A stretch of DNA of 64,000 bases, taken from assembly GCA_016223105.1 (NCBI GenBank), contig JACRPR010000036.1, positions 1,729 through 65,728 of the forward strand, read 5' to 3'. Position numbers and translations under genes: made by a program. The notes under the pieces are model-generated. The model ran no database searches and was not told the DNA's origin. It worked only from the letters and a program-made list of their open reading frames with translations. Shown piece by piece: positions 1,113 through 21,386 of this stretch; the stretch's first letter is position 1, and every line of letters starts with the position of its first letter. This stretch comes from Chloroflexota bacterium. GTDB lineage: Bacteria > Chloroflexota > Anaerolineae > UBA4142.

Positions 1113-1130
1113 TTTCATTTCTCCTGTCGT

Positions 1131-1176
1131 TGGTAAATTGGTAAATGGTAAATAGTAATTACCACTTACCATTTAC
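1131..1176. repeat. Inverted heptamer array (GGTAAAT)n / (ACCACTT, ACCATTT) between the NrfD and catalytic-subunit genes
   Basis: TGGTAAATTGGTAAATGGTAAATAGTAATTACCACTTACCATTTAC. Shares TAATTACCACTTACCA with 58185-58230. Confidence 0.85.
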
Positions 1177-2264: not shown

Positions 2265-2340
2265 GGTTGGATTCCTTCAATCTCTCAATCGCTTAATCTC
2301 TGTTCAAGAGATTTAGAGATTCAGAGATAAAGAGATTGTC

Positions 2341-3132: not shown

Positions 3133-3144
3133 AGCATTACCTCC

Positions 3145-3190
3145 TGAAAAATGAAAAACCAGAGACTGCTTCACCGCAGTTCTCTGGTTT
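3145..3190 (-). terminator. Strong terminator-like hairpin + U-tract abutting the RBS of the FeS-subunit gene
   Basis: On the minus strand: AAACCAGAGA-A-CTGC-GGTGAA-GCAG-TCTCTGGTTT followed by TTCATTTTT, then GGAGG (3144-3140) and ATG 3132. Confidence 0.55.
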
Positions 3191-3324
3191 CAATTTTAAG
3201 CGCAAGCGCGGTTGCGTTCTAGCGGGAAAACCCTGTGAATGATTTTACAATGCAAGGGAAATTCCTAGAGTTCCGCGAAATGCGTAGGGGAAATCCTGAC
3301 AAGATTATTGCGCCGCCCGGCGCG

Positions 3325-3804
3325 TTAACGCGGCAGAACGATCAATTCGCCGACCATCGAAGGTTGATGCGAGCCGCAGTTGATCTTGAACACCCCGGCT
3401 TTGTCCGCCTTGAATGTTACTTTGCTAACCTGACCGCGCTTGACGTTGAATGTAACATTGTACCCTTCGATGACACTGGGATGCTCCGCGCCGTTGATAC
3501 CCAGGATTTCGAGCGTTACTTCATCACCTTGATTCACAATGACCTGGTTCGGATCCCAGCGATACGCGGACACTTCCCAACGCCCATCCTTGTCGGGCGC
3601 TTTCAAAAGATAGCCGCCGCCTGCCGGCAACGCGTCCTTGGGAAATGCTTCTTGTGCCACCACCACGCCACCTTTCGGCTCGACCGCCGTCATCGTAATC
3701 GTGCGTTTGGTCGCCGGAATCGCATTTGCCGATTGCGCGCACGCGCCGAGCAACGCCGCGATCACTCCAAGCATCACCACAACTAGAGCAAGTTTCGTTT
3801 TCAT
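3325..3804 (-). CDS. Cupredoxin-fold (type-1 copper-like) lipoprotein
   Basis: Start set at ATG 3804 (MKTKLALVVVMLGVIAALLGAC, lipobox; GGAGG 3811-3815). AEHPS plus INCGSHQPSM gives a His..Cys-x2-His-x3-Met pattern. Confidence 0.65.
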   Translation of the reverse strand: MKTKLALVVVMLGVIAALLGACAQSANAIPATKRTITMTAVEPKGGVVVAQEAFPKDALPAGGGYLLKAPDKDGRWEVSAYRWDPNQVIVNQGDEVTLEILGINGAEHPSVIEGYNVTFNVKRGQVSKVTFKADKAGVFKINCGSHQPSMVGELIVLPR

Positions 3805-3964
3805 TCGATTCCTCCTTTTTGATTTGCCCCAATTATCGCACAGCGCATCCCGCGCGCCAATGGGCAATCGCCGCGATTTTCTGGAGACAATCCGCCCAGC
3901 CGATTTCGGACAAATGTCCAATGCCACGCGGGACAATCGGTGTTATAATTCCCTCGGGGGAACG

Positions 3965-5326
3965 ATGCTTGGAAAATTGCGCAACGTGACATTAGCGCGC
4001 CAATTCATGCTCGCAAGTTTTGTTGTCCTGCTTGCGGGAATGTTGATTATCGGCTGGTGGATCAGCGGACAAATCGAGCGCGGGGTGATCAATCAAACCG
4101 CCGGCGTTACCGCGCTCTATGTGGATAGTTTCATCACGCCCCATTTGCAAGACCTCGCGCGTGGCAACCTGCTTGATGCGGAGCATCGCAGTGCGCTCGA
4201 TAAATTGATGACGACCACACCGTTGGGCAAACGCATCGTCGCATTCAAGGTGTGGTCGCGTGACGGCGAAATTCTCTACAGCACCAGCGCCTCCCTCATC
4301 GGTCGCCGTTTTCCGATTGGCTTTGGACTGCAACACGCGCTCGATGGTCAGGTCGCGTCGCACATCAGCAATTTAAAGCAACCGGAAAACGAAGAAGAAA
4401 GCAAACGCTGGTTACAGCTTCTGGAAACGTACGCGCCGGTGCGTCTCGCCGGCACGGAACACATTTTTTTCGTATCCGAATTTTATCAGACGGTAGACGA
4501 TCTCAGCCGCGAAATCCAAATCGCGCAGATGACCAGTTGGATCGTCATCGGGGTTTGTACTACACTAATGTATCTCTTGCTTGCCGGGATGGTGGGACGC
4601 GGCAGTCGCACAATCGCGCGTCAGCAACGCGATTTGGCGGAAATGAACGAACGGGTCCGCCGCGCCGCCGCGCGCACAACGGCGCTCAATGAACAATTCC
4701 TCCGGCGCATTAGTGCGGACCTGCACGATGGGCCCGGTCAAGATTTGAGTTTCGCGCTCTTGCGTCTTTACACCATCGCAGAACATTGTCGGCAGTGCCT
4801 CAACCCGGCGAAACAACAATCGGTTAGCGCAGAACTGGACGCAATTCAAAACTCGTTGCAGAGTGGCTTGGGCGAACTACGCGACATTTCGGCGGGCTTG
4901 CGCCTGCCCGAACTCGACGCGCTTTCGCCAACAGAAACGGTCGCGCGCGCAATCCACGAACACGCGAGCAAAACGAACACCCACGTCGAATTCACCGCCG
5001 AGCGCGCGCCCGACCGCGCGCCGATGCCGGTGAAAATCACGCTGTTTCGCTTGACGCAAGAAGCGCTCGCGAATTCGTATCGGCATGCGCGCGGGGCGCG
5101 CCAAGCCGTACGCGTGTGGAGCGACGGCGCGGTGATTTGTCTGGAGGTCGCGGATACCGGGCGCGGGTTCGATCAGCAGAGCATTTCGCCCGGCACCCAA
5201 CATCTCGGCTTGGCGGGGATGCGCGAACGCGTGCAGGTTCTCGGCGGAACGTTCGAGGTCGAATCGGCACCGGGCGCGGGCACACGGATTCGCGCGCGCG
5301 TGCCGCAAGAGGTGTCTGATGAATGA
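3965..5326 (+). CDS. Membrane sensor histidine kinase, HisKA_3 (NarX/DegS-like) type
   Basis: Start at ATG 3965 (MLGKLRNVTLARQF). Two TM helices flank an extracytoplasmic segment. H-box LHDGPGQDL. Complete ATP lid MRERVQVLGGTFEVESAPGAGTRIRARVP. TGA 5324-5326 overlaps the next start (ATGAATGA). Confidence 0.85.
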   Translation: MLGKLRNVTLARQFMLASFVVLLAGMLIIGWWISGQIERGVINQTAGVTALYVDSFITPHLQDLARGNLLDAEHRSALDKLMTTTPLGKRIVAFKVWSRDGEILYSTSASLIGRRFPIGFGLQHALDGQVASHISNLKQPENEEESKRWLQLLETYAPVRLAGTEHIFFVSEFYQTVDDLSREIQIAQMTSWIVIGVCTTLMYLLLAGMVGRGSRTIARQQRDLAEMNERVRRAAARTTALNEQFLRRISADLHDGPGQDLSFALLRLYTIAEHCRQCLNPAKQQSVSAELDAIQNSLQSGLGELRDISAGLRLPELDALSPTETVARAIHEHASKTNTHVEFTAERAPDRAPMPVKITLFRLTQEALANSYRHARGARQAVRVWSDGAVICLEVADTGRGFDQQSISPGTQHLGLAGMRERVQVLGGTFEVESAPGAGTRIRARVPQEVSDE

Positions 5327-5966
5327 AACGATTCGCGTCGCGGTCGTGGACGATCATCCGATGTTTCGCGACGGCGTGATTTCGAGTTTACGCGCGGACG
5401 CGAACATTCAAGTGGTCGGGCAAGGCGCGAGCGCGGCAGACGCGCTTCACCTAGCGCAAGAACATTTGCCTGACATCCTTCTGCTCGATTTGACTATGCC
5501 CGGTGGAGGACTAGACGCGGCGCGCGCGATTGCCGCGTCCTGTCCGGTGACAAAAATCGTTATCCTGACGGTTTCCGAAAACGAGGATGACCTGCTCAAC
5601 GCGATCAAAGCCGGCGCGCGCGCGTACATTTTGAAGGGCGTCGCGGGAAACGAACTCGCGCGCCTGGTGCGCGCGGTGTATCAAGGCGAGGCGTACATCG
5701 CGCCGAAACTCGCGAATCGAATGTTGATCGAAATGACGCGCGCGCCGCGCGCCGAGAATCCGCTCGACCAACTCACCGAACGCGAACACCAGATTCTCGA
5801 ACTCGTCGCGTCGGGCGCGACGAATCGCGAAGCAGGCGCGCATTTGCACCTCGCGGAGAAAACTGTGCGCCACTATATGACGAACATTTTGCAAAAACTC
5901 CACGTCCGAAGTCGCGTCGAGGCGGCATTGCTCGCGCAAAAAGCCGGGCTGGGCGACGCGCGGTGA
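5319..5966 (+). CDS. NarL/FixJ-family response regulator (REC + LuxR-type HTH)
   Basis: VVDDHPMFRDG..LLLDLTMPG receiver domain; LTEREHQILELVASGATNREAGAHLHLAEKTVRHYMTNILQKL HTH. Confidence 0.9.
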   Translation: MNETIRVAVVDDHPMFRDGVISSLRADANIQVVGQGASAADALHLAQEHLPDILLLDLTMPGGGLDAARAIAASCPVTKIVILTVSENEDDLLNAIKAGARAYILKGVAGNELARLVRAVYQGEAYIAPKLANRMLIEMTRAPRAENPLDQLTEREHQILELVASGATNREAGAHLHLAEKTVRHYMTNILQKLHVRSRVEAALLAQKAGLGDAR

Positions 5967-5977
5967 GCGCAAAACAA

Positions 5978-6005
5978 GAATCGCGAACCTAAAGGTTCGC
6001 GATTC
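5978..6005. terminator. Perfect 12-bp hairpin between convergent genes
   Basis: GAATCGCGAACC-TAAA-GGTTCGCGATTC. The T-rich run lies only on the minus-strand side (rc of AAAACAA), so it is more convincing as the terminator of the small minus-strand ORF. Confidence 0.5.
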
Positions 6006-6029
6006 TCGTATCAAGCGAGACCGTGCCGC

Positions 6030-6194
6030 CTATGCCTTGTGTTCCGCCACACGCGGCGCTTCAGTCGGTGTGATTAGCGGCGTCTCGATCTCCATCTCGC
6101 CAGCCAAGCCCTTGACCGCCAACGCAAAACCGATAAAGATGAGCGTGCCAAGCAGAGTGTCGCCCACCAAAACCCAAATCGCCATGTTTTCCAT
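6030..6194 (-). CDS. Small hypothetical membrane protein (54 aa)
   Basis: ATG 6194 preceded by GGAGG (6200-6204). One hydrophobic helix, MAIWVLVGDTLLGTLIFIGFALAV. No recognisable family. Confidence 0.3.
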   Translation of the reverse strand: MENMAIWVLVGDTLLGTLIFIGFALAVKGLAGEMEIETPLITPTEAPRVAEHKA

Positions 6195-6321
6195 TTTTGC
6201 CTCCTTGAAATCAGAATCGAATTTCAATCTCTGATTGCACTATAATCGCGATGGGCATTGGCGACAATCGCTTTTTCGACCAAACGGCATACTCTGCGCG
6301 CAGTATTTTTTCCTACTGTAT

Positions 6322-6969
6322 TCAAAGTAACCCGTTCTCGATCGCGTATCGAATCAGCTCGGCGCGATTGTGCAAGTTTAGTTTTTCCATAATGTTCGCG
6401 CGATGCGTCGCGACAGTGAACGGACTGAGCACCAGCTTGTCCGCGATTTGCTGATTCGTCAAGCCGTCCGCGACGAGCGCGAGAATTTCGCGTTGGCGCG
6501 GCGTGAGTTCCTCGATTTGATTTTTCTCGACGCTATTCGCGCGTTTCAAATAATCGCCGACAAGTAATTTCGCGACGATGGGTTGCAAGTACACCTCGCC
6601 GCGCTGAATCGCTTGCAAGGCAATCAACAATTCCGTGACCTCCGCGCCTTTGAGAAGGTACCCCGATGCGCCCGCCGAGAGCGCGCGAAATAAATAATTC
6701 GCGTCATCGTGCACCGTGAGCAAAAGCACATTCACGCCGGGCATTTCGCGTTTGATGCGCGCGGTCGCGTCGAGTCCGTCGAGTTCGGGCATGCCAATGT
6801 CCATCAGCACGACATCCGGCGCGAGCGCGCGCGTTTTTTCAATCGCTTCAATACCCGTCGCCGCTTCGCCAACCACCGCGATGCCGCTTTGCGTTTCGAG
6901 TAGAGCGCGAATCCCGCGCCGCACGAGCGTGTGATCGTCCGCCAAAAGAATTTTGATTTTGTCTGCCAT
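6322..6969 (-). CDS. NarL-family response regulator (triad 1)
   Basis: LLADDHTLVRRG..VLMDIGMPELDG receiver domain; LTPRQREILALVADGLTNQQIADKLVLSPFTVATHRANIMEKL HTH. Confidence 0.9.
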   Translation of the reverse strand: MADKIKILLADDHTLVRRGIRALLETQSGIAVVGEAATGIEAIEKTRALAPDVVLMDIGMPELDGLDATARIKREMPGVNVLLLTVHDDANYLFRALSAGASGYLLKGAEVTELLIALQAIQRGEVYLQPIVAKLLVGDYLKRANSVEKNQIEELTPRQREILALVADGLTNQQIADKLVLSPFTVATHRANIMEKLNLHNRAELIRYAIENGLL

Positions 6970-6982
6970 CTTTACATTTTAC

Positions 6983-8806
6983 TCACACCGGAATTTCTAC
7001 CCGCACGCGCGTTCCGTTGCCAACCTGGCTCGCAATCTCCAACCGTCCGCCGAGCAATTCCGCGCGCTCGCGCATTCCCAGCAAACCGACGCCGCCCGCG
7101 CGCCACGCGTCCGCGACATTGAATCCCGCACCATCGTCTTCGATTGTCGCGTTCACGCGCGCGGATTCAAATTGCAAACCCAGCGCGATCTGTTTAGCGC
7201 GCGCGTGCTTGACGACATTGTTGATCGCTTCCTGCGCGATGCGAAAGAGCGCGGTCTCGATGTGCGGCGCGAGCCGCCGCCGCGCGCCGTGAATCTGAAA
7301 CTCAAACGCGATTTGCGCCGGCGCGCACGCGCGTTCGCCGAAACTGCGAATCGCCGGCGCGAGCCCCGCGTCGTCCAGCACCGTCGGACGCAAATCGAAA
7401 ATCAATCGCCGCGTCTGTTCGAGAATTTGCGCGGCGAGTGTGTGCGTGTCCACGAGCCGCGCGCGCGTCGCGTCATCGCGCGCGAGGGTTTGCTCGTGCG
7501 TTTGCAAACCGACGATCAGCGCGGTCAAACTCTGCGCGAATTCGTCGTGCAATTCACGCGCGATGCGTTTGCGTTCTTCCTCTTGCGCGTCAATCACGCG
7601 GTCGAGCAATTGCCGGCGAAACAATTCGCGTCTCTGCGCTTCAGCCAGTTCGAGATTTTCAATCGCCAAACCGATCTGCTGTCCCAGCGCGGTCAGCAAA
7701 CGCAAACGTTCGGCGGCAAAACAATCCGGTTCGGCGCACGCGAGATGCAACGCGCCCCAGACGCGTTCGTGCGCCGCCAACGGAACAATCGCGTGATGCG
7801 CGGCGAGCGTCGCGCATTTGTCGCCGTTATGTGTCAACCGCGCGTGATCGGTGATCTCACGCGCGCACTCACACGCGATAATTTCCGCCGCGCGCGCCGG
7901 TTCGATCGCGCGCGTAGCGACCACGCGCGCGGAATCGTTTTCGCGCAACGCGATCCAGCCGACCGCTAAATTCATCACTTGAAGCGTTTCATCGAGCGCG
8001 CTGTTCAGCAACGCATCGAGATTTGCGCTGTGGCTAATCGCGCCCGCGAGCGTATTGAGCGCGCGCAGTTGTTCGTTCGACGTTTGCAACGCGCCTTGCG
8101 ATTGCGCGAGCGCGCGCGTCATCGCGTTGAACGCATTGCCGAGTTGCGCGATTTCATCCTGCCCCGCGATCGGCGCGTGATGCGTGAAATCGCCGCGCGC
8201 GACGGCGCCGGTTGCCTCGACCAATTTTTCAAGTGGACGCACGAGCACGCGCGCGAGCAGGTACGCGGTGATAAAAACCGGGATCAGACTCAACGCGGTT
8301 TGCGCGAGCAAGTTGAACGTGTGGCGATCAATGTCCGCGTTCAACGCGCGCTCCGACATACCGACGCGCACGTTGCCCAATTTACCATCGAACAACGGCG
8401 CGGCAACATCGAGCACAAAACCTTCTTCGGTGTTGATCCGTTGCACATGAAAATGCTCGTCCGCGCGCACCCGATTCGCGTCGAGCAATCCTTTCGGAAT
8501 CCCGCGCCCGAACGATTGCGCCAGCACGCGGCTTTGCGCGTCCAACACCAGGATATAGCGCGCATCGGGATTGTTGAGGAGCGTATCGTTGATCAGTTCG
8601 TTGAGCCGAAAGAGATCATTCGTCAGCGCGGCATCGGTCGCGTACGCGGCGAACGCGGACACGGTCGCGACGCTCCGTTGTTCAAATTGCTCGCGCGCGA
8701 ATTGCTCAACTTCGGCGCGATTCAAGTACGTGCGAATCAAACCCAAGCCGAGCGTGAGCAAAAGCATCGCACTAACAAGTTGAAAGGAGAGTGAAGTCCA
8801 CCGCAT
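6983..8806 (-). CDS. Sensor histidine kinase: TM / extracytoplasmic domain / TM / HAMP / GAF-like / HisKA_3 / HATPase (triad 1)
   Basis: H-box ELHDEFAQSL. Intact C-terminus MRERAELLGGRLEIASQVGNGTRVRVEIPV. Paralogue of 10420-12438. Confidence 0.85.
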   Translation of the reverse strand: MRWTSLSFQLVSAMLLLTLGLGLIRTYLNRAEVEQFAREQFEQRSVATVSAFAAYATDAALTNDLFRLNELINDTLLNNPDARYILVLDAQSRVLAQSFGRGIPKGLLDANRVRADEHFHVQRINTEEGFVLDVAAPLFDGKLGNVRVGMSERALNADIDRHTFNLLAQTALSLIPVFITAYLLARVLVRPLEKLVEATGAVARGDFTHHAPIAGQDEIAQLGNAFNAMTRALAQSQGALQTSNEQLRALNTLAGAISHSANLDALLNSALDETLQVMNLAVGWIALRENDSARVVATRAIEPARAAEIIACECAREITDHARLTHNGDKCATLAAHHAIVPLAAHERVWGALHLACAEPDCFAAERLRLLTALGQQIGLAIENLELAEAQRRELFRRQLLDRVIDAQEEERKRIARELHDEFAQSLTALIVGLQTHEQTLARDDATRARLVDTHTLAAQILEQTRRLIFDLRPTVLDDAGLAPAIRSFGERACAPAQIAFEFQIHGARRRLAPHIETALFRIAQEAINNVVKHARAKQIALGLQFESARVNATIEDDGAGFNVADAWRAGGVGLLGMRERAELLGGRLEIASQVGNGTRVRVEIPV

Positions 8807-8826
8807 GATCGCTTTTCAATTCCGAA

Positions 8827-9741
8827 TTACTTTTTCGATTGCCCCGCGCGCACGCGCATCGCGCGCACCGAGTCGTACGCGCGGTCGTCGGGAATAACGA
8901 AACGATCAATCCCAATCCTGGCAAGAATCGCGCGCCCCGCGTCGTCTCCATTCATCAGCAACAACGCCTCGCGCAATTGCGTTTTGAGTTTCGCGTCGAG
9001 ATTCGGATTGATGACGAGCGGCGAACTACCGAACGGTCCGAACCGCGCGATAATCCGCGTCCGCGCGGGCAACGGCGAACCGGACGCGACGAGAAAGTCA
9101 AAGACCTGGTTGTCCACCGTCGCGCCGTCCACTAAATTTTCCGCGACCGCTTTGATCGAATTGTCGTGGCTGTATGTGAAAATCGTGCGCGCGAAAAACG
9201 CGTCGGGTGTCGTTTGCATTCGCAAAAGTTGATCCACCGCGACGAGCCGCCCCGTGTTCGAGAGCGGATCCGAAAACGCGAACGTCTTGCCGCGCAAATC
9301 CGCGAGTGATTTCGCCGCGCTGTCCAACGGTACGATCAGATACGCGTAATACACGGTCTCGCCTTTCACTTGCGGCACAACGAGCGCCTCCATTCCAAAT
9401 TGCTCTTGTCCTTCGAGGTACGCGTTCGTGCAAACAAGCGCGAGCGCGACCGTGCCTTCGCGCACCATCGCGTTGATTTCGTCGTACGTCTTACCCTGCA
9501 CGATTTGCGCGGGGCGATTGAGTTTTTGTCCGAGGTAATTCGCGAGGTCTTGATAAAGCGTAAGACTCGTGCGCGGGGAATAGACCGGTGCGATCGCGAT
9601 GCGGAGCGCGTCGGCATTGACCGGCGCGGCATCGCGCGCGGGCGCGTCCGTTTCCAAATCGGCGAGCCGCACGCGCGGCAAGTTCGCGTCGGCAGACGCG
9701 CACGCGGTTACGAAAATCAGCGCGAGCAAAAAAAATCTCAC
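8827..9741 (-). CDS. PhnD/PtxB-like (phosphonate-type, class II) periplasmic binding lipoprotein (triad 1)
   Basis: Signal and lipobox MRFFLLALIFVTAC. LRIAIAPVYSP, FAFSDPLSNTG and TYSHDNSIKAV are typical of this family. No ABC permease or ATPase is adjacent; a kinase and regulator follow instead. Confidence 0.75.
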   Translation of the reverse strand: MRFFLLALIFVTACASADANLPRVRLADLETDAPARDAAPVNADALRIAIAPVYSPRTSLTLYQDLANYLGQKLNRPAQIVQGKTYDEINAMVREGTVALALVCTNAYLEGQEQFGMEALVVPQVKGETVYYAYLIVPLDSAAKSLADLRGKTFAFSDPLSNTGRLVAVDQLLRMQTTPDAFFARTIFTYSHDNSIKAVAENLVDGATVDNQVFDFLVASGSPLPARTRIIARFGPFGSSPLVINPNLDAKLKTQLREALLLMNGDDAGRAILARIGIDRFVIPDDRAYDSVRAMRVRAGQSKK

Positions 9742-9742
9742 G

Positions 9743-10393
9743 TCATTCCTCCACCATCCACCCTTCCTGGATCGCGTACCGCACGAGCGCGGCGCGGCTG
9801 GTGAGTCCCAGTTTTTCCATTCCGCGCGCGCGATAACTTTCGACCGTTTTTACGCTGAGGGATAATTGATCCGCAATGTCCTGGTTCGTGTGTCCGAGCG
9901 CGACGAGTTTCAACACCGCGCGTTCGCGTTCGCTCAATTCGGCGGACGATGCGGACGATGCGTGCGCGGAGGGAATCATCTTGTCAATCAAAATTTTCGC
10001 GTGCGAGGGATGAATGTACACATTGCCGCGCATCACCGCGCGAATCGCGGAAATCAATTCCGCGTCCGCCGCGCTTTTGGGACAATAACCCGCCGCGCCG
10101 GCTTCGAGCGCGCGACGCAAGTACCCTTCTTCTTCGTGCATCGTCAACACCAGGACGCGCACGTTTGGATGCGCGCGTTTCACTTGGCGTAATACTTGCA
10201 AGCCGTCGGTCTTGGGCATTGTGATATCGAGAATGAGCAAATCGGGCGCGAGGTCGCGCGTCGCGGACAACGCTTCTTGTCCGTTCGTCGCTTCGCCGAC
10301 AACGCTCAAATCGTCTTGCGCGTTGAGCAACATTTTCAAGCCGGAACGCAAGACGGAATGATCGTCGGCAAGAAGGATGCGAGTTTTGGTCAT
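9743..10393 (-). CDS. NarL-family response regulator (triad 2)
   Basis: Start moved to ATG 10393 (MTKTRILLADD); the track start at 10408 is TTG. REC plus LuxR HTH (LSERERAVLKLVALGHTNQDIADQLSLSVKTVESYRARGMEKL). Confidence 0.9.
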   Translation of the reverse strand: MTKTRILLADDHSVLRSGLKMLLNAQDDLSVVGEATNGQEALSATRDLAPDLLILDITMPKTDGLQVLRQVKRAHPNVRVLVLTMHEEEGYLRRALEAGAAGYCPKSAADAELISAIRAVMRGNVYIHPSHAKILIDKMIPSAHASSASSAELSERERAVLKLVALGHTNQDIADQLSLSVKTVESYRARGMEKLGLTSRAALVRYAIQEGWMVEE

Positions 10394-10415
10394 TGGAATT
10401 GATCTCAAATCAAAT

Positions 10416-10564
10416 GTAACTACTCAGCCCATGTCATTGCGAGCGGTTTTCCCTGGCACTTGCGTTCCCGCCAGGGCAAGTGTGCGAAGCAATCCCCGAC
10501 CTGGTCGATCCGGATTTGCAACGCGGGGATTGCTTCGTCGGCAAAAACCGCCTCCTCGCAATGA
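10416..10564. mobile_element. Repeat family 1 (MITE-like, GTCATTGCGAGCGG...CTCGCAATGAC core with GTAACCGTTCAG outer ends), copy truncated at one end, inside the kinase 3' end
   Basis: Near-identical to 40931-41095. The right end stops at ..CGCAATGA, without the CACCTGAACGGTTAC terminus seen in the other copies. Confidence 0.8.
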
Positions 10565-12438
10565 AGTTCCGCGCGTTCGCGCATGCCATGCAAACCGAGT
10601 CCACTTTCTTCGGGCGAGAGATCAAGCACCGCGCGCGCGTCAAAGCCGCGCCCGTCGTCTTCGATGATCGCGATGACCGCGCGCGTTTTGCGCTCGACGA
10701 CGATGCTCACATTTTGCGCGCGCGCGTGTTTCGCAATGTTCGTCAACGCTTCTTGAATGATCCGATACAGCGCAAGTTCAACTTGCGGCGAGACGCGATC
10801 GCCATTGCGAAAGCCGGTCATTTGCAAATCGGTGTTCAAGCCAAAATTCGCGCGATAATTCGCGATGTAGCGTTCGAGCGCGGCGGACAATCCCAGGTCG
10901 TCGAGCAACGCGGGACGCAATTCGCGCGCGAGGCGTTTCACCGATTCGAGCGTTTGCGCGGCAATCTCGCGCAGATCGTTGAGCCGCGCACGCGATTCAG
11001 TTTCCCCGGCTTCGCCCGCGACGCGCAAGCCGACCATCAACGACGTGATCGCTTGCCCGGTGTCATCGTGCAATTCGCGCGCGATGCGTTTGCGTTCCTC
11101 TTCCTGCGCGCCGATCACTTTTTCGAGCAATTGCCCGCGCACGCGTTCCTTCTCGCGCAGATCGTCCCACAAACGCGCGTTCTCAATCGCGACACCGAGT
11201 TGTTGCCCGATCGCTTCGAGCAACTTCACTTCCGCCGCGCTGAACGCGTGCGCGTCCGCGCTCGCGATGCCCAACACACCCAACACGGTCGCGTGCGCGA
11301 GAATCGGCACGGTAACGTGCGATGCGATCGCGCTCGCGTTCGCAAGTGTACCATCGCGCAGAGGACATCGTTCCGGCAATGGCGCGACGACGATGGATTG
11401 TTTATCCGTGAGCGCGATTGTGCAAGGACAACCGTGCAACGCGGTCGCGACTTCGCGTTCGCCTAAATCGCGCGGCAAACCAAGCCAGGTCGTCATTTGA
11501 ATCTTTTCGCCATCCAGCAAAAAAATCCAACCCGCCGGAAGATCGAGCGTGTCGAGTAACGCGCGTAACGATCGTTCCAAGGTTTCCGCAAGCGGCGCGG
11601 GCGCGTTCACCGCGTTCGCGACCGCGTTCAACGCTTCGAGTTCGCGTTGCCGCCGCAACATCGCGCGTTGCGCCGCGTCGAGTTCGCTCGTCATGCGATT
11701 GAACGCAGTCGAGAGTTGTCCGATTTCATCGTCGCCCCAGGGCGGCATGCGTTGCATCAGATCGCCGCGCGCAACCGCGTGCGTAACATCCACGAGCGCG
11801 CGGATCGGGCGCGTGAGAATCAACGTGAGCAAGTACGCCGCGCCGACGCCGAGCAGTGACACCGCGAACGTTGTCAGCAACATCTGGCGCGTCAATTCGT
11901 CCACCGCCGCGCGCGCGCTGTGTTCGGTCAAGCCGACGCGCGCGAAACCGGCGCGTCCATCAAAAATCGGCACCGCGACATCGTGAATCGCGCCTTCATC
12001 ACTCGTGAGGACGACGACGTTCGCGCGCGCCGCGGTCGCGACTGGATTTTGTTCCGCGAGCCCGCGCGGAAATCCTTCATCGAACGAATGGACGAGGACG
12101 CGGCGATATGGATCGAGGATGAACGCGTAGCGGAGATCGGTATTGTTGCGAAGCGAATCGGTGAGGAGTTCGTGGAGCGCGTAGGTGTTGTTGATGAGAA
12201 TGTAATCGGTCGCGTGCGCGGCGAGATCGCGCGCGATTGAAATCGCGCGCTCGTCCAACCGCGCGAGCAAACTCGCGGTCATACTCGCGCGCGCTTCCCA
12301 GGTGATGACGAATCCCAGCAACAAAACGAGCGCGAGGACGATGCCCATAATTTTCGCGCGGACACTCGGACGCAGGATCCAATTGCGGATTGCCCTTTTG
12401 AAATCTGCAATCCGCAATCTGAAATTTGAAATGCTCAT
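10420..12438 (-). CDS. Sensor histidine kinase (triad 2) whose C-terminal ATP-lid is replaced by repeat-derived sequence; possibly non-functional
   Basis: Same architecture as 6983-8806, H-box ELHDDTGQAI. After MRERAEL the protein reads [47 protein letters not shown], which is the translation of the repeat at 10416-10564, instead of LGGxLEIxSxxGxGTxVxxxIP. ATGA overlap with the upstream gene. Alternative start ATG 12348 (MGIVLALV). Confidence 0.75.
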   Translation of the reverse strand: MSISNFRLRIADFKRAIRNWILRPSVRAKIMGIVLALVLLLGFVITWEARASMTASLLARLDERAISIARDLAAHATDYILINNTYALHELLTDSLRNNTDLRYAFILDPYRRVLVHSFDEGFPRGLAEQNPVATAARANVVVLTSDEGAIHDVAVPIFDGRAGFARVGLTEHSARAAVDELTRQMLLTTFAVSLLGVGAAYLLTLILTRPIRALVDVTHAVARGDLMQRMPPWGDDEIGQLSTAFNRMTSELDAAQRAMLRRQRELEALNAVANAVNAPAPLAETLERSLRALLDTLDLPAGWIFLLDGEKIQMTTWLGLPRDLGEREVATALHGCPCTIALTDKQSIVVAPLPERCPLRDGTLANASAIASHVTVPILAHATVLGVLGIASADAHAFSAAEVKLLEAIGQQLGVAIENARLWDDLREKERVRGQLLEKVIGAQEEERKRIARELHDDTGQAITSLMVGLRVAGEAGETESRARLNDLREIAAQTLESVKRLARELRPALLDDLGLSAALERYIANYRANFGLNTDLQMTGFRNGDRVSPQVELALYRIIQEALTNIAKHARAQNVSIVVERKTRAVIAIIEDDGRGFDARAVLDLSPEESGLGLHGMRERAELHCEEAVFADEAIPALQIRIDQVGDCFAHLPWRERKCQGKPLAMTWAE
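10451..10482 (+). repeat. 32-nt element CCCTGGCACTTGCGTTCCCGCCAGGGCAAGTG (nested in family 1)
   Basis: Identical 32-mer at 10451, 25247 and 40969, all in the same orientation. Confidence 0.9.
12398..12434. repeat. Heptamer-type array (GAAATCT / GCAATCC) encoding the putative N-terminus of kinase 2
   Basis: TTGAAATCTGCAATCCGCAATCTGAAATTTGAAATG. Translated as MSISNFRLRIADFK. Confidence 0.75.
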
Positions 12439-13373
12439 GGCGCGGTGTTGATTTCCAATTCCAGCGCGCGCGCGGAATCGTAAATGCCGTCGGGCGCTTG
12501 CACGAACCGATCAATCATCAACGTTTTCAAAATCGGCAACGCGCTGGGATCGTAATACATTTTGAGAAAAAGTTCGCGCAGAGTTTCTTTCGTCTGCGGA
12601 GATAATTTCGGATTGACGACGACTGGCGGAATCCCGAACGCGGGCGAGCGATGAATCACGCGCGTTTTCTGCGCGATGCCGGGATCGCGCGCGACGAAAA
12701 AATCGTACACGAGCGAATCCACGCTCGCGCCGTCGGCGATCTTGTTCGCGACCGCGCGGATCGCGTTATCGTGACTGTACGTGAAAAAGACGCGCGCGAA
12801 AAATGTTTCCGGCGTTGCCTCAAAATTTTTCACGAGCGCCGTTGGATACACGCGCCCGGTCAGCGACATTGGATCGGTGAACGCGAACACCTTGCCGCGC
12901 AAATCGCTCATCGCGCGCGCGGGGCTATCGGCAGGCACGATCAAGAGCGAATAGTACACTGTCGCGCCGGTCACTTCGGGCGCGACGAGCAATTCCATTC
13001 CAAAATCGCGTTGCCCGATCACATACGCGCTCGTGCAAACAAATCCAACATCCACGTAGCCGTTTTTGATCAGGTCGTTCACTTCGGCGTACGTTTGGCG
13101 TTGCACCAGTTCGACCGGGCGATTGAGTTTGTTCTGGATGTACTTGAGCAAATCGCCGTAACTTTCGACGTTGCCTTTCGGCGAAATCACCGCCGCGACG
13201 GCGACGCGCAGAGGACGCGTGTCGTTCGGGGAATACGCGACCGCAGACGCCGGTTCGACCTCACGAAAACGAATCGTCGGATTCGTCGTCGCGTTCGAAC
13301 ACGCGGTCAGCGTGAGTAGAAAAAAGAGCGCGGTAAAAATCAATCGGATAAAATAACGCAATGGGAACGGCAT
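12435..13373 (-). CDS. PhnD/PtxB-like periplasmic binding lipoprotein (triad 2)
   Basis: Lipobox LTLTAC. Clear paralogue of 8827-9741 (NKLNRPVELVQRQTYAEVNDLI.., FAFTDPMSLTG, TYSHDNAIRAV). Confidence 0.75.
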   Translation of the reverse strand: MPFPLRYFIRLIFTALFFLLTLTACSNATTNPTIRFREVEPASAVAYSPNDTRPLRVAVAAVISPKGNVESYGDLLKYIQNKLNRPVELVQRQTYAEVNDLIKNGYVDVGFVCTSAYVIGQRDFGMELLVAPEVTGATVYYSLLIVPADSPARAMSDLRGKVFAFTDPMSLTGRVYPTALVKNFEATPETFFARVFFTYSHDNAIRAVANKIADGASVDSLVYDFFVARDPGIAQKTRVIHRSPAFGIPPVVVNPKLSPQTKETLRELFLKMYYDPSALPILKTLMIDRFVQAPDGIYDSARALELEINTAP

Positions 13374-13508
13374 ATTGGTTCTTCCTTTTAATCTCCATCT
13401 ATTTTCGCATTATTCGCGCCAATCGTCAATAATTTATTTTCGCACGCGGCGGTCAAAGCATCGTCCGAATCCAGTTCCAAACCGGTTCGGCAAGCGCGTT
13501 GGTTATTT

Positions 13509-13537
13509 TTGACAAATCCGCGCCCGCAGAATATAAT
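13509..13537 (+). promoter_or_regulatory. Perfect sigma-70-type consensus promoter TTGACA-N17-TATAAT for the ars operon
   Basis: TTGACA 13509-13514, 17-nt spacer, TATAAT 13532-13537, read directly from the sequence. Confidence 0.75.
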
Positions 13538-13556
13538 TCAATAGAGATTGAATTAT
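13533..13556. promoter_or_regulatory. 10-4-10 perfect palindrome overlapping the -10 box; candidate ArsR operator
   Basis: ATAATTCAAT-AGAG-ATTGAATTAT. ArsR/SmtB repressors bind AT-rich inverted repeats that overlap their own promoters. Confidence 0.65.
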
Positions 13557-13563
13557 CTCCACC

Positions 13564-13630
13564 GTCATTTCGAGCGGAGCGAGAAATCTCAATTGCGCGG
13601 ACGGAGATTTCTCGCTCCGCTCGAAATGAC
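13564..13630. repeat. Family-1-related perfect palindrome (27-bp arms) in the arsR leader
   Basis: GTCATTTCGAGCGGAGCGAGAAATCTC-13 nt-GAGATTTCTCGCTCCGCTCGAAATGAC. Confidence 0.85.
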
Positions 13631-13650
13631 AATGTTGATGGTGATGTGAA

Positions 13651-14034
13651 ATGCCCAAACTTGCGCCGGTGACCGATCTAATCGAAACGTTGAAATTGCT
13701 TGCGGACCCAACGCGCCTGGCGATTTTCAATTTGCTGATGCAAGGGGTGCAGTGCAATTGCGAACTCGGCGATCAACTTGGGTTGCCGATGAATTTGATC
13801 TCGCATCATCTCAAGGCATTGCGCGATGCGGGATGGGTCAATGCCGAACGCGATGCGAATGACGCGCGCTGGGTTTATTACGCGATCAACCCGCGCGCGC
13901 TCAATCAACTGCGCGAGCAACTGTCCGCGTTCCTCGATCCGCAACGGATCAAACCACGACAGCCCAAGTGCGGTCCGCGCGTTGATGCGGCGGCAAGCAC
14001 GCGCGTCGCACAACGCGAACGCGTGGGTAAGTGA
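13651..14034 (+). CDS. arsR: ArsR/SmtB-family metalloregulator
   Basis: wHTH LLADPTRLAIFNLLMQGVQCNCELGDQLGLPMNLISHHLKALRDAGWV, with Cys-x-Cys in the ELCVCDL-equivalent position. Confidence 0.85.
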   Translation: MPKLAPVTDLIETLKLLADPTRLAIFNLLMQGVQCNCELGDQLGLPMNLISHHLKALRDAGWVNAERDANDARWVYYAINPRALNQLREQLSAFLDPQRIKPRQPKCGPRVDAAASTRVAQRERVGK

Positions 14035-14098
14035 AACAAGTCGCGCCGCGCATTTGGGCAACGAAGCGCGAGACGCCTCTGCGTTGAAAGGAGGCACG

Positions 14099-14311
14099 AT
14101 GCACGTTCAAGTTCTTGGACCGAGTTGCGCCAATTGTTTGAAACTCGAAATGCTCGTGATGCAAACGTTGACCGAACTCGACATTCGGGATGCGCGCGTT
14201 GAAAAAATTACAACGCCGCGCGAGATGGAACGCTTGATGGCGGGCGATCCACCTGGTCTGGTGATCAACGGACAATTGGTTAGGTCGGGCGGCAAAACCC
14301 TACCGACCTAA
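14099..14311 (+). CDS. Small thioredoxin-fold protein (redox-active disulfide protein 2 / Thioredoxin_3 type), copy 1
   Basis: ATG 14099 after AGGAGG 14089-14094. MHVQVLGPSCANCLKLE carries a CxxC motif. 70 aa. Confidence 0.7.
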   Translation: MHVQVLGPSCANCLKLEMLVMQTLTELDIRDARVEKITTPREMERLMAGDPPGLVINGQLVRSGGKTLPT

Positions 14312-14426
14312 ACGGAAATCGCGGAATGGCTTCGCGCGGCCACCGTCGCGCCGGTGCGAAATTGAAAATCTCGTGATGAACGCGGGATGCCGGCTAATCC
14401 CGCGTTCGTTTTTGTGGGGGCGCAAA

Positions 14427-14603
14427 ATGAAAATCGAAAAAACTGGCGTGATGCTTGAGGAAGCCGAAATGATGGAACTGGAATCCATCCTCCTCGATGA
14501 GGATGGCAAAGCCGCACTCGATTTTTTGAAGCGGCTCAAACGGCGCATCGAAATTCTGCAACGTTCGCATTGCGGAACAATGTTCGGTGAAAATCTAAAG
14601 TAA
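14427..14603 (+). CDS. Small hypothetical protein (58 aa)
   Basis: ATG 14427 (MKIEKTGVMLEEAEMMELESILLDEDGKAALDFLKRLKRRIEILQRSHCG). Acidic, helical composition. Lies between the two thioredoxin-fold genes. No family recognised. Confidence 0.35.
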   Translation: MKIEKTGVMLEEAEMMELESILLDEDGKAALDFLKRLKRRIEILQRSHCGTMFGENLK

Positions 14604-14614
14604 CGGAGGAAAAA

Positions 14615-14857
14615 ATGTTAAAGATTAAAGTGCTGGGGTCGGGTTGCGCCAACTGCCACAAGGTCGAAGCACTTGCCAAGCAAGCCATCGCACAATTGGG
14701 CGTGGAGGCGCAAGTCGAGTTGGTGACGGATCTGCAAACGATTCTGCGTTACGGCGTGATGAGCACGCCCGGCATCGTCATCAACGACCAGGTCGTTTCG
14801 ACCGGGCGCGTGCCCGCGCCCTCGCAAATTACGACGATGATTACGAACGCGCTCTGA
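14615..14857 (+). CDS. Small thioredoxin-fold protein (redox-active disulfide protein 2 type), copy 2
   Basis: GGAGGA 14605-14610. MLKIKVLGSGCANCHKVE carries a CxxC motif. Paralogue of 14099-14311. Confidence 0.75.
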   Translation: MLKIKVLGSGCANCHKVEALAKQAIAQLGVEAQVELVTDLQTILRYGVMSTPGIVINDQVVSTGRVPAPSQITTMITNAL

Positions 14858-14860
14858 CAT

Positions 14861-14907
14861 CAGTCAACAGTCAACAGTCAACAGTAAACAGTAAACAGTA
14901 AACAGTC
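14861..14907. repeat. Tandem heptamers (CAGTCAA)3(CAGTAAA)3 immediately upstream of the acr3 RBS
   Basis: Read directly from the sequence. Confidence 0.9.
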
Positions 14908-14918
14908 GAGGAAGAAAA

Positions 14919-15989
14919 ATGGCGAACACACTTGCGCGCCCAAAATCGGAAAATGTTTTTCAACAACTCGGTTTGCTCGACCGCTTTTTGCCGGTGTGGA
15001 TTTTTTTCGCGATGGCGCTCGGCGTTATTCTCGGCGCGGTTACACCTGGGATCAAAAATTTATTCAACGCGCTCTCCATCGGTACGGTATCGTTCCCCAT
15101 CGCGATTGGTTTGCTGTGGATGATGTATCCCGTCCTGGCAAAGGTCAAGTACGAAGAACTCGGCAAGGTCGCGCAAGCGTGGGAACAATTCAGCGTGTCG
15201 CTCATTCTGAATTGGCTAATCGGTCCCGTCGTAATGTTCGCGCTCGCGTGGATGTTCCTGCCCGACCTCGCGCAATTTCGCACCGGCTTGATCATCACCG
15301 GCTTGGCGCGCTGTATCGCGATGGTGTTGATTTGGAATATGCTCGCGGGCGGCGATAGCGAATACTGCGCGGCGCTCGTCGCGCTGAACAGTGTTTTTCA
15401 AATCGTGATGTACTCGCCGCTCGCGTATTTTTTCTTGATGATTGTGCCGGGCTGGTTTGGAATGAAAGGCACACTCGTCAACATTGAAATGTGGGACATT
15501 GCGAAAAGCGTTTTGATTTTTCTCGGCATCCCACTCGTCGCCGGGATCATCACGCGATTTTATTTTTTGCGAACGCGCGGCAAGGACTGGTACGAAACCG
15601 AATTGATGCCGCGTTTGGGTCCGACTGCGATGATCGGTTTGCTGTTCACGATTGTCGTAATGTTTTCGATGCAAGGCGACAAGATTCTCGCCGCGCCGCT
15701 CGACGTGGTGCGCGTCGCGGTGCCGCTCGGCGTGTACTTTATCGCGATGTTCTTTTTATCGTTCGCGCTTTCGCTGTGGCGCAAATTTTCGTACGAACTC
15801 GCGACGACGCAATCGTTCACCGCGGCGAGCAACAATTTTGAATTAGCAATTGCAGTCGCGGTCGGCACGTTTGGCATCGCGTCGCCCGAAGCATTGGCAA
15901 CCGTGATCGGTCCGTTGATCGAAGTGCCGGTGTTGATCGCGTTGGTGTACGTCGCGCTGTGGCTCAAGCGCGCGTGGTTCACGCGATAA
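14919..15989 (+). CDS. acr3: ACR3-family arsenite efflux permease
   Basis: LGLLDRFLPVWIFFAMALGV, LLWMMYPVLAKVKYEELG and 10-TM composition are typical of Acr3. GAGGAAG RBS. Confidence 0.9.
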   Translation: MANTLARPKSENVFQQLGLLDRFLPVWIFFAMALGVILGAVTPGIKNLFNALSIGTVSFPIAIGLLWMMYPVLAKVKYEELGKVAQAWEQFSVSLILNWLIGPVVMFALAWMFLPDLAQFRTGLIITGLARCIAMVLIWNMLAGGDSEYCAALVALNSVFQIVMYSPLAYFFLMIVPGWFGMKGTLVNIEMWDIAKSVLIFLGIPLVAGIITRFYFLRTRGKDWYETELMPRLGPTAMIGLLFTIVVMFSMQGDKILAAPLDVVRVAVPLGVYFIAMFFLSFALSLWRKFSYELATTQSFTAASNNFELAIAVAVGTFGIASPEALATVIGPLIEVPVLIALVYVALWLKRAWFTR

Positions 15990-16031
15990 TGGGTCGCACA
16001 CAAACACACATTGCGATTTTGCAAAAAACTC

Positions 16032-16090
16032 GGATTCGACGCTTTAGCGGGTACTTGGTCAGACAAATCACCGCGTAAACGCTCGATTCC
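16032..16090. repeat. Repeat family 3 (GGATTCGACGCTTTAGCGGGT ... ACCGCGTAAACGCTCGAATCC)
   Basis: Outer 8-bp stem. Each arm carries a self-complementary 10-mer (CGC-TTTA-GCG / GCG-TAAA-CGC). Same orientation as 49870. Confidence 0.8.
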
Positions 16091-16135
16091 AAAAACGCAA
16101 TCAGCGTCCGCGTCCCATTTTCAAAAGAGGAGTGA

Positions 16136-17182
16136 ATGGCGATCAATAAAATTTCCGCACCCCGCGCAACGCCGCGCGTGTACATCGCGCTCGCACTTGC
16201 GGCAATCGCGTGGTGGATCGCGTACACAATTCTGCAACCGCTTGCCGAGTTTGTCGCGTACAACATTCTCGCGCTCGAGCGCGGCTCGCATCTCGGCGAA
16301 GCGGTCGCGTTTTTTCTGTACGATGTGCCGAAAATTTTGTTGCTGTTGAGCGCGATGATTTTTTTCATCACGATCATTCGCACGTTCTTCAGTCCCGAAC
16401 GCACGCGCCAACTTTTGGGCGGCAGGCGCGTCGGCATCGGCAACGTCCTCGCGGCAATGCTCGGCATCGTTACGCCGTTTTGCTCGTGCAGTGCCGTGCC
16501 GCTCTTTATCGGCTTTGTCGAATCGGGCATTCCGCTCGGCGTCACGTTTTCGTTTTTGATCGCCGCGCCGGTGATTAACGAAGTCGCGGTTGTTTTACTT
16601 TTTGGATTATTCGGCTGGCGCGTCGCCGCGCTCTACATCGCGTCCGGTCTCACGATCGCGATCTTCGCGGGCATCGTCATCGGTCGCTTGAACCTGGAAC
16701 GGTACGTCGAAGATTTTGTGTGGCAACTGCAATTCACCGCCGCGCCGGATGAATCGGGGAAATTGACCTGGGATGAACGCATCACGCGCGCGATAAACGC
16801 GGTGCGCCAGATTGTTGGCAAGGTGTGGCTCTATGTCGTGATCGGCATCGCGGTCGGCGCGGGGATTCACGGTTACGTGCCGACGGACGCGCTCGCGGAG
16901 GTGATGGGCAAATCGGCGTGGTGGTCGGTGCCAATCGCGGTGCTGATCGGAATTCCACTTTATTCGAATGCGGCGGGCATCATTCCGATTGTGTCCGCGT
17001 TGATCGAAAAAGGCGCGTCGCTCGGCACCGCGCTCGCGTTTATGATGGCGGTCGTCGGTTTGAGTTTGCCGGAAATGATCATCTTGCGGCGCGTGCTCAA
17101 GCCGCAATTGATCGCGATTTTTATCGGCGTCGTTGGCATCGCGATCATTCTCACCGGCTATTTGTTCAACCTGGTGATGTAA
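16136..17182 (+). CDS. Permease of the ArsP / PF03773-like family (putative organoarsenical or metalloid permease)
   Basis: Polytopic membrane protein with the TPFCSCSAVPLFIGF vicinal-cysteine motif. In other genomes this family sits next to small CxxC thioredoxin-fold genes and ars genes. Confidence 0.75.
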   Translation: MAINKISAPRATPRVYIALALAAIAWWIAYTILQPLAEFVAYNILALERGSHLGEAVAFFLYDVPKILLLLSAMIFFITIIRTFFSPERTRQLLGGRRVGIGNVLAAMLGIVTPFCSCSAVPLFIGFVESGIPLGVTFSFLIAAPVINEVAVVLLFGLFGWRVAALYIASGLTIAIFAGIVIGRLNLERYVEDFVWQLQFTAAPDESGKLTWDERITRAINAVRQIVGKVWLYVVIGIAVGAGIHGYVPTDALAEVMGKSAWWSVPIAVLIGIPLYSNAAGIIPIVSALIEKGASLGTALAFMMAVVGLSLPEMIILRRVLKPQLIAIFIGVVGIAIILTGYLFNLVM

Positions 17183-18544: not shown

Positions 18545-18682
18545 GTAACCGTTCAGCCCAACCTGTCATTGCGAGCGGTTTTTGCGAAGCAATCCCCAAC
18601 ATTGTCGTTCCGGAATTGTCGCGCGGACGCTTCGCGGCTTCGTCGCAAAAAACGCTCCTCGCAATGACACCTGAACGGTTAC
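18545..18682. mobile_element. Repeat family 1, full copy without the 32-nt nested insert
   Basis: GTAACCGTTCAGCCCAACCTGTCATTGCGAGCGGTTTTTGCGAAGCAATCCCC...CTCCTCGCAATGACACCTGAACGGTTAC. Confidence 0.85.
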
Positions 18683-21379: not shown

Positions 21380-21386
21380 TTATGCT

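Follow-up and report, generated by a model that had tools for sequence, protein, structure and literature searches.

A 64,000-nucleotide stretch of a Chloroflexota genome (GenBank assembly GCA_016223105.1, contig JACRPR010000036.1, positions 1,729 to 65,728; hereafter called the window) carries, at positions 6322–13373, six genes that specify two putative three-component sensory systems. All six open reading frames lie on the minus strand and form two paralogous triads, each consisting of genes for a binding lipoprotein (X), a membrane histidine kinase (S), and a response regulator (R), in the order X–S–R. Beyond the second triad lies a locus, called B–C–A, for an enzyme of the molybdenum bis(pyranopterin guanine dinucleotide) (Mo-bisPGD) type, and an arsenic-resistance (ars) gene cluster diverges from the first triad. 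Here, we combine a Pfam domain scan and equivalog-model (TIGR) scoring of the window proteins with analyses of related loci to examine what these triads may sense and what they may control.

The first triad begins with X1 (12435–13373; 312 amino acids, lipobox LTAC, PF12974 E = 1.8e-59), an ArrX-like lipoprotein predicted to bind an oxyanion. S1 follows (10420–12438), encoding a kinase that Pfam resolves into sCache_3_2, HAMP, GAF, HisKA_3, and HATPase_c domains. R1 encodes an ArrR-like, NarL/FixJ-type regulator with Response_reg and GerE domains. The R1 open reading frame spans 9743–10408, and alignment with its ortholog in the related locus L002 marks the ATG at 10393 as the likelier true start, giving 9743–10393. 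The second triad comprises X2 (8827–9741; 304 amino acids, lipobox VTAC, PF12974 E = 7.8e-62), a second, diverged ArrX-like lipoprotein; S2 (6983–8806; 607 amino acids), an intact kinase of the same domain order; and R2 (6322–6969), again a NarL/FixJ-type regulator with Response_reg and GerE domains. X1 and S1 overlap by the sequence ATGA at 12435–12438, R1 and X2 lie 1 base apart, X2 and S2 are separated by 20 nucleotides (8807–8826), and S2 and R2 by 13. Given this close packing, the six genes look like a single operon. The corresponding proteins are 47% (X1/X2, E = 2e-92), 40% (S1/S2, E = 3e-115), and 49% (R1/R2, E = 6e-68) identical, a likeness far above chance, and the two triads are paralogous. 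A preliminary description of the sequence had reported two tandem paralogous triads, lipoproteins of the PhnD fold, and the X1/S1 overlap and X2/S2 gap; all of these features are present as reported.

The binding proteins supply the first indication of what the system detects. In a sequence search across the PDB, the best match for both lipoproteins is ArrX of Chrysiogenes arsenatis (6x6b; E = 8.6e-63 for X1 and 6.4e-51 for X2). AioX ranks next (E = 3e-33 and 2e-38, respectively), and PhnD, PtxB, and HtxB are far weaker, with E values of 1e-18 or weaker. X1 is 41% identical to ArrX and favors it over AioX by 100 bits. For X2, identity is 34% with ArrX and 31% with AioX, and the margin is 41 bits (177 versus 136). 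Badilla et al. defined the ligand pocket of the sensing subfamily as residues Y88, C106, Y131, S161, S163, H192, and D210 in AioX numbering (PMC5908839). Six of the seven, namely Y95, C113, Y140, S170, H201, and D219 in X1 numbering, are identical in the aligned X1, X2, ArrX, and AioX proteins. The seventh, S163, is replaced conservatively by threonine in both X1 and X2. The pocket cysteine, which X1 and X2 retain, is absent from PhnD.

We also weighed the possibility that the two lipoproteins are nothing more than transport proteins of the PhnD/PtxB type, serving an ATP-binding cassette (ABC) importer encoded elsewhere. Public annotation speaks for this view: every named homolog is labeled a phosphonate or phosphite ABC binding protein, and 3252 proteins match at E ≤ 1e-10. 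Both lipoproteins indeed pass the broad subfamily model TIGR01098 (X1 134 bits, X2 129 bits; cut-off 112), which accounts for their public label, "phosphonate ABC transporter substrate-binding protein." Both nonetheless fail the PhnD equivalog TIGR03431 (131.4 and 131.7 bits; cut-off 261.1). In a neighbor-joining tree with 200 bootstraps that included verified PhnD, PtxB, AioX, and ArrX sequences, PhnD and PtxB split from all other proteins in 176 of 200 replicates (88%). This phylogeny and the pocket comparison had been proposed as checks in the preliminary description, and both set X1 and X2, which carry the cysteine of the sensing subfamily, apart from the transport proteins.

Genomic context points the same way. 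We scanned one genome per species, recovered 529 relatives, and read the best 80 loci. All 80 belong to Chloroflexota, chiefly to Anaerolineae, and groundwater is the source of many. A NarL regulator gene lies within 4.5 kb downstream of the binding-protein gene, on the same strand, in 59 of the 61 loci with enough downstream DNA. No ABC transporter genes were seen adjoining X in any of the 80 loci; an ABC-ATPase signature occurs anywhere at all in only four, and in the sole case in which its position was checked (L030), it lies ~6 kb from X. The window likewise holds no phnCE across its 64 kb. Its sole ABC system is a complete pstSCAB–phoU set with its own PstS, in keeping with the earlier remark that the triads lack an ABC partner. 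We therefore regard the transport reading as effectively refuted. The preliminary description had named clustering with transport PhnD proteins, together with an orphan phnCE elsewhere, as an outcome that would overturn its sensing view; neither turns up in the tree or in the window. Judged by their sequences, X1 and X2 are sensing-subfamily proteins that public annotation misnames as transport proteins, and the prevailing label misleads for their named relatives as well, which are components of sensors.

Regarding the kinases, the HAMP and GAF domains recognized in the preliminary description are both present; it had missed the extracytoplasmic sCache_3_2 domain and, in S1, a truncation. Specifically, the S1 match to HATPase_c stops at profile position 88 of 111, whereas that of S2 reaches position 108. 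The native S1 sequence (10564–12438) ends in GMRERAEL and then enters a palindromic miniature inverted-repeat transposable element (MITE) of ~132 nucleotides, with approximate boundaries at 10432–10565. Orthologs of S1 continue after GMRERAEL with VGGxLxIESxxGxGSSVFVEIPIQ, a segment missing from S1. The MITE replaces the last ~24 codons and adds a foreign tail of 47 amino acids (10420–10563). A second copy, 96% identical, occupies an intergenic spacer at 40951–41080, and partial copies lie at 25247–25279 and 18564–18582. With the two final strands of the ATPase domain gone, S1 is probably kinase-dead, which would leave triad 2 as the intact module. The truncation may, on the other hand, be an artifact of assembly at the MITE repeat.

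The two triads share with the ArrXSR system of C. arsenatis and Desulfurispirillum indicum (PMC5908839) the binding pocket, the sCache_3_2–HAMP–HisKA_3 kinase, the LuxR/FixJ-type regulator, and the gene order X–S–R. Common to both, too, are ars genes close by and an arsenic enzyme of the Mo-bisPGD type, the latter here a candidate only. A search with ArrX as the query led to relatives whose surroundings could be read. In D. indicum, arrAB diverges from a gene set encoding X, an sCache_3_2–HAMP–HisKA_3 kinase, and a Response_reg–GerE regulator, after which an ars operon follows. The same X–S–R set precedes arrCAB in Desulfuribacillus stibiiarsenatis and arrABDC in a Bacillota metagenome-assembled genome (MAG). 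ArrR of Chrysiogenetes and Firmicutes is of the LuxR/FixJ type and lacks an AAA+ domain (PMC5908839). Thus, a NarL-type output is normal for ArrXSR systems. The preliminary description had presented both the NarL output and the GAF-containing kinase as departures from precedent; of the two, only the GAF insert is unusual. The window differs from ArrXSR in its tandem duplication, in a GAF domain bearing a Cys3-His motif, in having X as a lipoprotein, and in the presence of a Ttr-like B–C–A enzyme instead of canonical ArrAB.

Other binding-protein-dependent systems resemble the triads in part. AioXSR and ArxXSR have the periplasmic-binding-protein subfamily and the three-component logic in common with the triads, but AioR and ArxR are sigma-54-dependent AAA+ activators (PMC5908839), whereas R1 and R2 are NarL-type proteins without a Sigma54_activat domain. 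In TtrSR and TorT–TorS, as here, a PhnD-like or other periplasmic binding protein provides the input to a kinase, which in turn regulates a reductase of the Mo-bisPGD type, and TtrR is LuxR-type. In TtrS, the PhnD-like domain is fused to the kinase. By contrast, X1 and X2 are separate lipoproteins, and the kinase ectodomain is sCache_3_2. Membership of the triads in the TtrSR family was considered and rejected, R1 and R2 scoring 76.4 and 82.6 bits against a TtrR equivalog cut-off of 290. Furthermore, sequence comparison shows the combination of X and sCache_3_2 to be a module that is reused with other outputs and targets. For instance, the Planctomycetota MAG locus L088 encodes an ArrX-like protein, an sCache_3_2–HAMP–PAS–HisKA kinase, and a sigma-54 activator beside genes resembling those for heterodisulfide reductase (Hdr) and NADH dehydrogenase.

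The presumptive target is the B–C–A locus, transcribed from the minus strand. B (2341–3132, with its ATG at 3132) encodes a TtrB-like subunit with four Fe–S clusters (Fer4_11), C (1173–2264; PF03916 E = 1.6e-40) encodes an NrfD-type membrane subunit predicted to oxidize quinol, and A (1–1112) encodes the N-terminal 370 amino acids of a Ttr-like Mo-bisPGD catalytic subunit and runs off the window. A carries a twin-arginine translocation (Tat) motif, RRDFLK, and a CxxCxxxC motif. B scores 179.5 bits against TtrB (cut-off 416) and 155 bits against ArrB, below cut-off in both cases. The A fragment scores 116.8 bits against TtrA and 42 bits against ArrA, for which the cut-offs are 1750 and 1600. 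Full-length A could be scored from the L002 ortholog: it reaches 466 bits for TtrA, about a quarter of the cut-off, and 108 bits for ArrA. On these scores, the enzyme was rejected as a bona fide TtrBCA.

One sequence feature may tie A to arsenic. A Gly-Arg pair (R165 in ArrA of Shewanella sp. ANA-3) has been proposed as a hallmark that Ttr-like arsenate reductases share with Arr and Arx and that true Ttr enzymes lack (PMC12949373). We set the window fragment and more than 30 A subunits of Chloroflexota against three ArrA proteins encoded in arr loci. The column that reads (R/K)GRY in ArrA reads WGRxK in A (SWGRAK in the window versus MRGRYS in D. indicum), and the Gly-Arg pair is present in the window protein and in the more than 30 related A subunits. 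The Mo-ligand cysteine aligns as well (HTTVCQG in the window versus HSAICAE in D. indicum). The X-associated A proteins fall into two subtypes, a majority with HTTVCQG...SLYF, to which the window protein belongs, and a minority with HTTICEQ...SHHIAY (L002, L045, L077, L078, and L082). These subtypes explain why the window A is only 48% identical to that of L002, while B and C are 73% and 77% identical. In most Chloroflexota loci, a FmdE-family gene with a zf-dskA_traR-like motif lies 3' of A (19697–20326 in L002), and its product may act as an accessory protein in maturation or zinc binding; in the genome studied here, the equivalent stretch falls beyond the window.

Ttr-like arsenate reductases have been reported in Anaeromyxobacter sp. 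PSR-1 as well as in Pyrobaculum aerophilum (PMC12949373, PMC11462812). With these, the window enzyme shares a TtrA-clade A subunit bearing Gly-Arg, an Fe–S subunit, and an NrfD-type anchor; the Chloroflexota enzymes, candidates for this activity, differ in having two A subtypes and, in most loci, the FmdE-like gene after A. Chloroflexota contributed 19–44% of the ttrA transcripts in an arsenic-rich paddy soil, and the metatranscriptomic study left their role open (PMC11462812). From its sequence features, B–C–A probably functions in arsenate respiration.

The linkage between sensor and enzyme recurs among the relatives. Among the 51 loci of at least 12 kb, B is present in 40, A in 31, and ars-type genes, within 10 kb, in 16; they adjoin the module directly in the window and in L007. 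The usual orders are X–S–R–B–C–A–FmdE and B–C–A–FmdE–X–S–R, and X–S–R leads directly into B–C–A in L002–L004. The preliminary description had tied the triads to the AioX, ArxX, and ArrX lineage of binding proteins that work with kinases beside Mo-bisPGD enzymes and ars genes; the ArrX match and this synteny bear it out. The consistent linkage of an ArrX-like sensor to a Ttr-like B–C–A enzyme in dozens of Chloroflexota species provides independent genomic support for interpreting their "ttrA" genes as respiratory arsenate reductase genes.

A candidate site of regulation lies upstream of B. Three boxes of the form AGG-N5-CCC, spaced by 31–32 bp on the minus strand, have the sequences AGGATTTCCCC (3287–3297), AGGAATTTCCC (3256–3266), and AGGGTTTTCCC (3224–3234), and we propose them as regulator sites of the B–C–A promoter. 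The pattern AGGNNTTNCCC matches the window at exactly these three boxes, against an expectation of 0.55, a count that is circular because the pattern was derived from this window. Within the 400 bp upstream of B in the relatives, the pattern occurs at 21 times its density across the loci as a whole, and the boxes are usually in the orientation of B, in pairs 30–32 or 64–65 bp apart. A position weight matrix built from the other loci only ranks the window boxes 1st, 2nd, and 4th on both strands of the window. When extended, the consensus reads tGTCAGG-TTT-CCCCGACA and forms an imperfect inverted repeat, which fits the expectation for a NarL/FixJ dimer. The boxes also bear a likeness to the published C. 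arsenatis site tcaggtttttccctga, which we mention as a lead only.

The promoter layout can be aligned in six loci: three boxes, ~25 nucleotides, TAGAAT or TAAAAT, a hairpin with a U-run, a Shine–Dalgarno sequence, and the ATG. If the conserved TAAAAT of the window (3193–3198, minus strand) is the -10 element, as we infer, the third box would be centered at about -43, a position typical of activators. The hairpin and U-run, followed by the Shine–Dalgarno sequence of B, occupy 3140–3192 on the same strand. In single-sequence folds, the window hairpin has a ΔG of -22.6 kcal/mol (z = -4.3), and across six loci (the window, L006, L007, L008, L009, and L012), the values range from -16 to -25 kcal/mol (z = -2.7 to -6.2); the sequences differ, and the structure is kept. 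RNAalifold found 5 weak pairs in the B leader from a MAFFT alignment that was out of register, and an Rfam scan of window positions 1–16000 at the gathering threshold gave no matches. This terminator-like hairpin could serve as a 5' stabilizer or as an attenuator.

Taken together, these findings lead us to favor, with fair though by no means complete confidence, the view that the triads are two paralogous ArrXSR-type sensors (also called ArrTSR) for an arsenic oxyanion, most likely arsenate, and that they drive a Ttr-like, arsenate-reducing B–C–A enzyme. The notion is that lipid-anchored X traps the oxyanion on the outer side of the monoderm Chloroflexota cell membrane, and that loaded X docks onto the extracytoplasmic sCache_3_2 domain of its own S. 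The signal would then travel through HAMP and the cytoplasmic GAF domain to the HisKA_3 core, which would phosphorylate the NarL/FixJ-type R. Subsequently, phosphorylated R would bind the three AGG-N5-CCC boxes, with centers near -43, -75, and -106 of the B–C–A promoter, and switch on the Tat-exported, quinol-linked, Ttr-like Mo-bisPGD enzyme that is predicted to reduce arsenate. The divergent ars operon would clear the arsenite that B–C–A forms.

Several observations weigh against this arsenate-sensing model. The pocket residues cannot tell arsenate from arsenite or phosphate, and ArrX, which binds arsenate with a dissociation constant of about 1 µM, also binds phosphate (150 µM) (PMC5908839). 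X2 shows only modest identity to either ArrX or AioX, as given above, and the split between AioX and the ArrX-like proteins is weak (40% bootstrap, neighbor joining). By sequence, A qualifies neither as canonical ArrA nor as true TtrA, and TtrA is its best family. The matrix scan reveals no good box upstream of X1 or arsR, and AGG-N5-CCC was not found in the arr intergenic regions of D. indicum or D. stibiiarsenatis. Finally, X–S–R modules also occur beside enzymes that are not arsenic enzymes, namely the Hdr-like genes of L088 and SreABC on Methanoperedens elements.

Some of these same observations would suit a system of identical architecture with a different ligand, that is, an oxyanion of sulfur, selenium, antimony, or phosphorus (tetrathionate, thiosulfate, selenate, antimonate, phosphite, or phosphate), with B–C–A being a tetrathionate- or selenate-type reductase. 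The TtrA/SrdA clade takes in reductases for both tetrathionate and selenate, the pocket does not fix specificity, and relatives of the module sit beside SreABC and Hdr-like genes in other lineages. Running counter to such a ligand, ArrX binds no selenate, tetrathionate, thiosulfate, sulfate, molybdate, or phosphonate (PMC5908839), the TtrA score of A falls far below its cut-off, Gly-Arg is conserved throughout the A subunits that we aligned, and ars genes accompany the module in a subset of loci, adjoining it in two. On balance, we judge a non-arsenic ligand unlikely, though plausible enough to be kept in view.

The duplication raises the question of whether the two triads do the same job. Triad 1 is 74–78% identical to the single module of L002 (X1 76%; R1 78% over 215 amino acids), and sequence comparison makes it the ortholog of the lone module that most relatives carry. 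Several species have kept triad 2, an old paralog, alongside it. Specifically, tandem double triads are also found in L007 and L008, with X2 orthologs that are 80–82% identical, and in L015; L007 has divergent ars genes, too. X2 falls with the proteins of L007, L008, and L015 in a separate clade, Xb, at 100% in one neighbor-joining tree and in 177 of 200 bootstraps in a second. Because the modules are old, co-retained paralogs, diverged specificities are plausible. One way to picture this divergence is a division of labor in which triad 1, like ArrX, responds to arsenate and triad 2, behaving like AioX or ArxX, responds to arsenite or a kindred species, placing the enzyme under substrate and product control, or in which the enzyme works in both directions. 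Such an arrangement would make sense of the age, support, and co-retention of the Xa and Xb clades in these four loci, of the near-equal distance of X2 from ArrX and AioX, and of several differences between R1 and R2 in the putative recognition helix, as read from sequence. Yet X2 still favors ArrX by bit score, and the three-box promoter is the same in single- and double-triad loci, so that no separate R2 site is evident. We consider this division of labor very doubtful.

Compared with ArrS-type kinases, the architecture has gained nothing but the GAF domain, and the kinases of most Chloroflexota relatives, at ~480 amino acids, lack it. All 14 GAF-bearing kinases that we recovered, from both paralog lineages, carry a C-x-C...C...H motif in this domain, with C-C in place of C-x-C in L015. 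In S1, the residues are C337, C339, C358, and H374 (~11317–11430), and the three cysteines are the only ones in the native protein; in S2, they are C312, C314, C331, and H338 (~7793–7873). The motif is reminiscent of the As(III) sites in ArsR and ArsD, which consist of three thiolates, and it suggests a metal, metalloid, or redox site. AlphaFold2, run on a two-sequence GAF alignment, gave a mean predicted local distance difference test score of 72 and about 50 over residues 60–110, which contain the cysteine motif. Queried with the GAF segment of S1, a homolog search yielded a single unrelated fragment, and a profile search with the S1 and S2 GAF alignment was dominated by giant multi-GAF proteins. 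We speculate that GAF could provide a second, cytoplasmic input (arsenite, or an Fe–S or redox cofactor), such that the kinase would integrate external arsenate, detected via X, with internal arsenite or redox state, and the two triads would have distinct external ligands. The result would be a logic gate with two channels, governing a non-canonical form of arsenate respiration widespread in groundwater Anaerolineae. As a whole, this scheme strikes us as distinctly unlikely.

The combination of ArrTSR, a ttr-like enzyme, and ars genes has already been described once, in the Ignavibacteriota. Specifically, Melioribacter roseus possesses ArrTSR, ttr-like, and arsRPCB genes. Its genes for the PhnD-like protein, the kinase, and the regulator sit directly upstream of those for a Ttr-clade molybdoenzyme, with ars as a neighbor, and its ttrA-like gene responds to arsenate (PMC5492636). 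Compared by its published description, M. roseus differs in having a single module, in belonging to another phylum, and in showing no GAF domain. Similarly, the ars genes of an Ignavibacterium MAG precede those for X and for an sCache_3_2 kinase, the core of which is HisKA, not HisKA_3. The window is a variant in that its module is duplicated in tandem, its kinases have a GAF insert with the Cys3-His motif, and one kinase is truncated by a MITE; only the GAF motif and the duplicated, anciently diverged modules go beyond the known paradigm. Many of the linked Chloroflexota species are represented by MAGs from groundwater and the subsurface. If the arsenate reading is true, surveys based on arrA underestimate arsenic-mobilizing capacity. 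The conserved three-box promoter, moreover, offers a concrete regulatory target.

Between the triads and their presumptive target lie further genes. A Mo enzyme and the ars genes (arsR–acr3) do flank the triads, as noted in the preliminary description, but a peptide gene, a further kinase–regulator pair, and a cupredoxin-like gene intervene between R2 and the B promoter. The peptide gene (6030–6194, minus strand), 3' of R2, has a strong Shine–Dalgarno sequence and encodes 54 amino acids with a single transmembrane segment. tblastn finds it at the equivalent position in L007 (74% identity), L008 (61%), L009 (58% and 71%, in two pieces), and L015 (35%), and the peptide may be a seventh component of the sensor system. 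A third HisKA_3 kinase gene, HK3 (about 3965–5326, plus strand), whose product has an ectodomain of no assigned family, diverges from the gene for a cupredoxin-like lipoprotein (3325–3807, minus strand), which lies between the peptide gene and the B promoter; HK3 pairs with a third NarL regulator gene, RR3 (5319–5966, plus strand). None of these three genes was found across the 80 related loci, for which reason we rejected them as members of the system. Their absence from the relatives suggests an insertion (3325–5966) that split the sensor operon from the B promoter.

On the other side, the ars cluster (13651–17182, plus strand) comprises arsR (13651–14034; HTH_5), two thioredoxin-like genes of the MTH895/ArsE family (14099–14311 and 14615–14857), acr3 (14919–15989; SBF, equivalog 427 bits, cut-off 283), and a gene for an ArsP-family permease (16136–17182; ArsP_1). 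A perfect sigma-70 consensus, TTGACA-17-TATAAT, lies at 13509–13537. The arsR leader also contains a palindromic element of ~90 nucleotides (13540–13630), unrelated to the MITE, that yields a repeat of the "SFRAERSEKSL" type when translated. Farther along, a phosphate-regulon block on the minus strand (20231–28375) holds pstS, pstC, pstA, pstB, and phoU, the pst genes scoring above their equivalog cut-offs and phoU being assigned by Pfam only. This block also contains genes for a nicotinate phosphoribosyltransferase, for a pair consisting of an OmpR-type regulator and a HisKA kinase, and for a protein resembling low-molecular-weight protein tyrosine phosphatases and ArsC (118 bits, cut-off 174). 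Genes for handling arsenate and phosphate therefore cluster within 15 kb.

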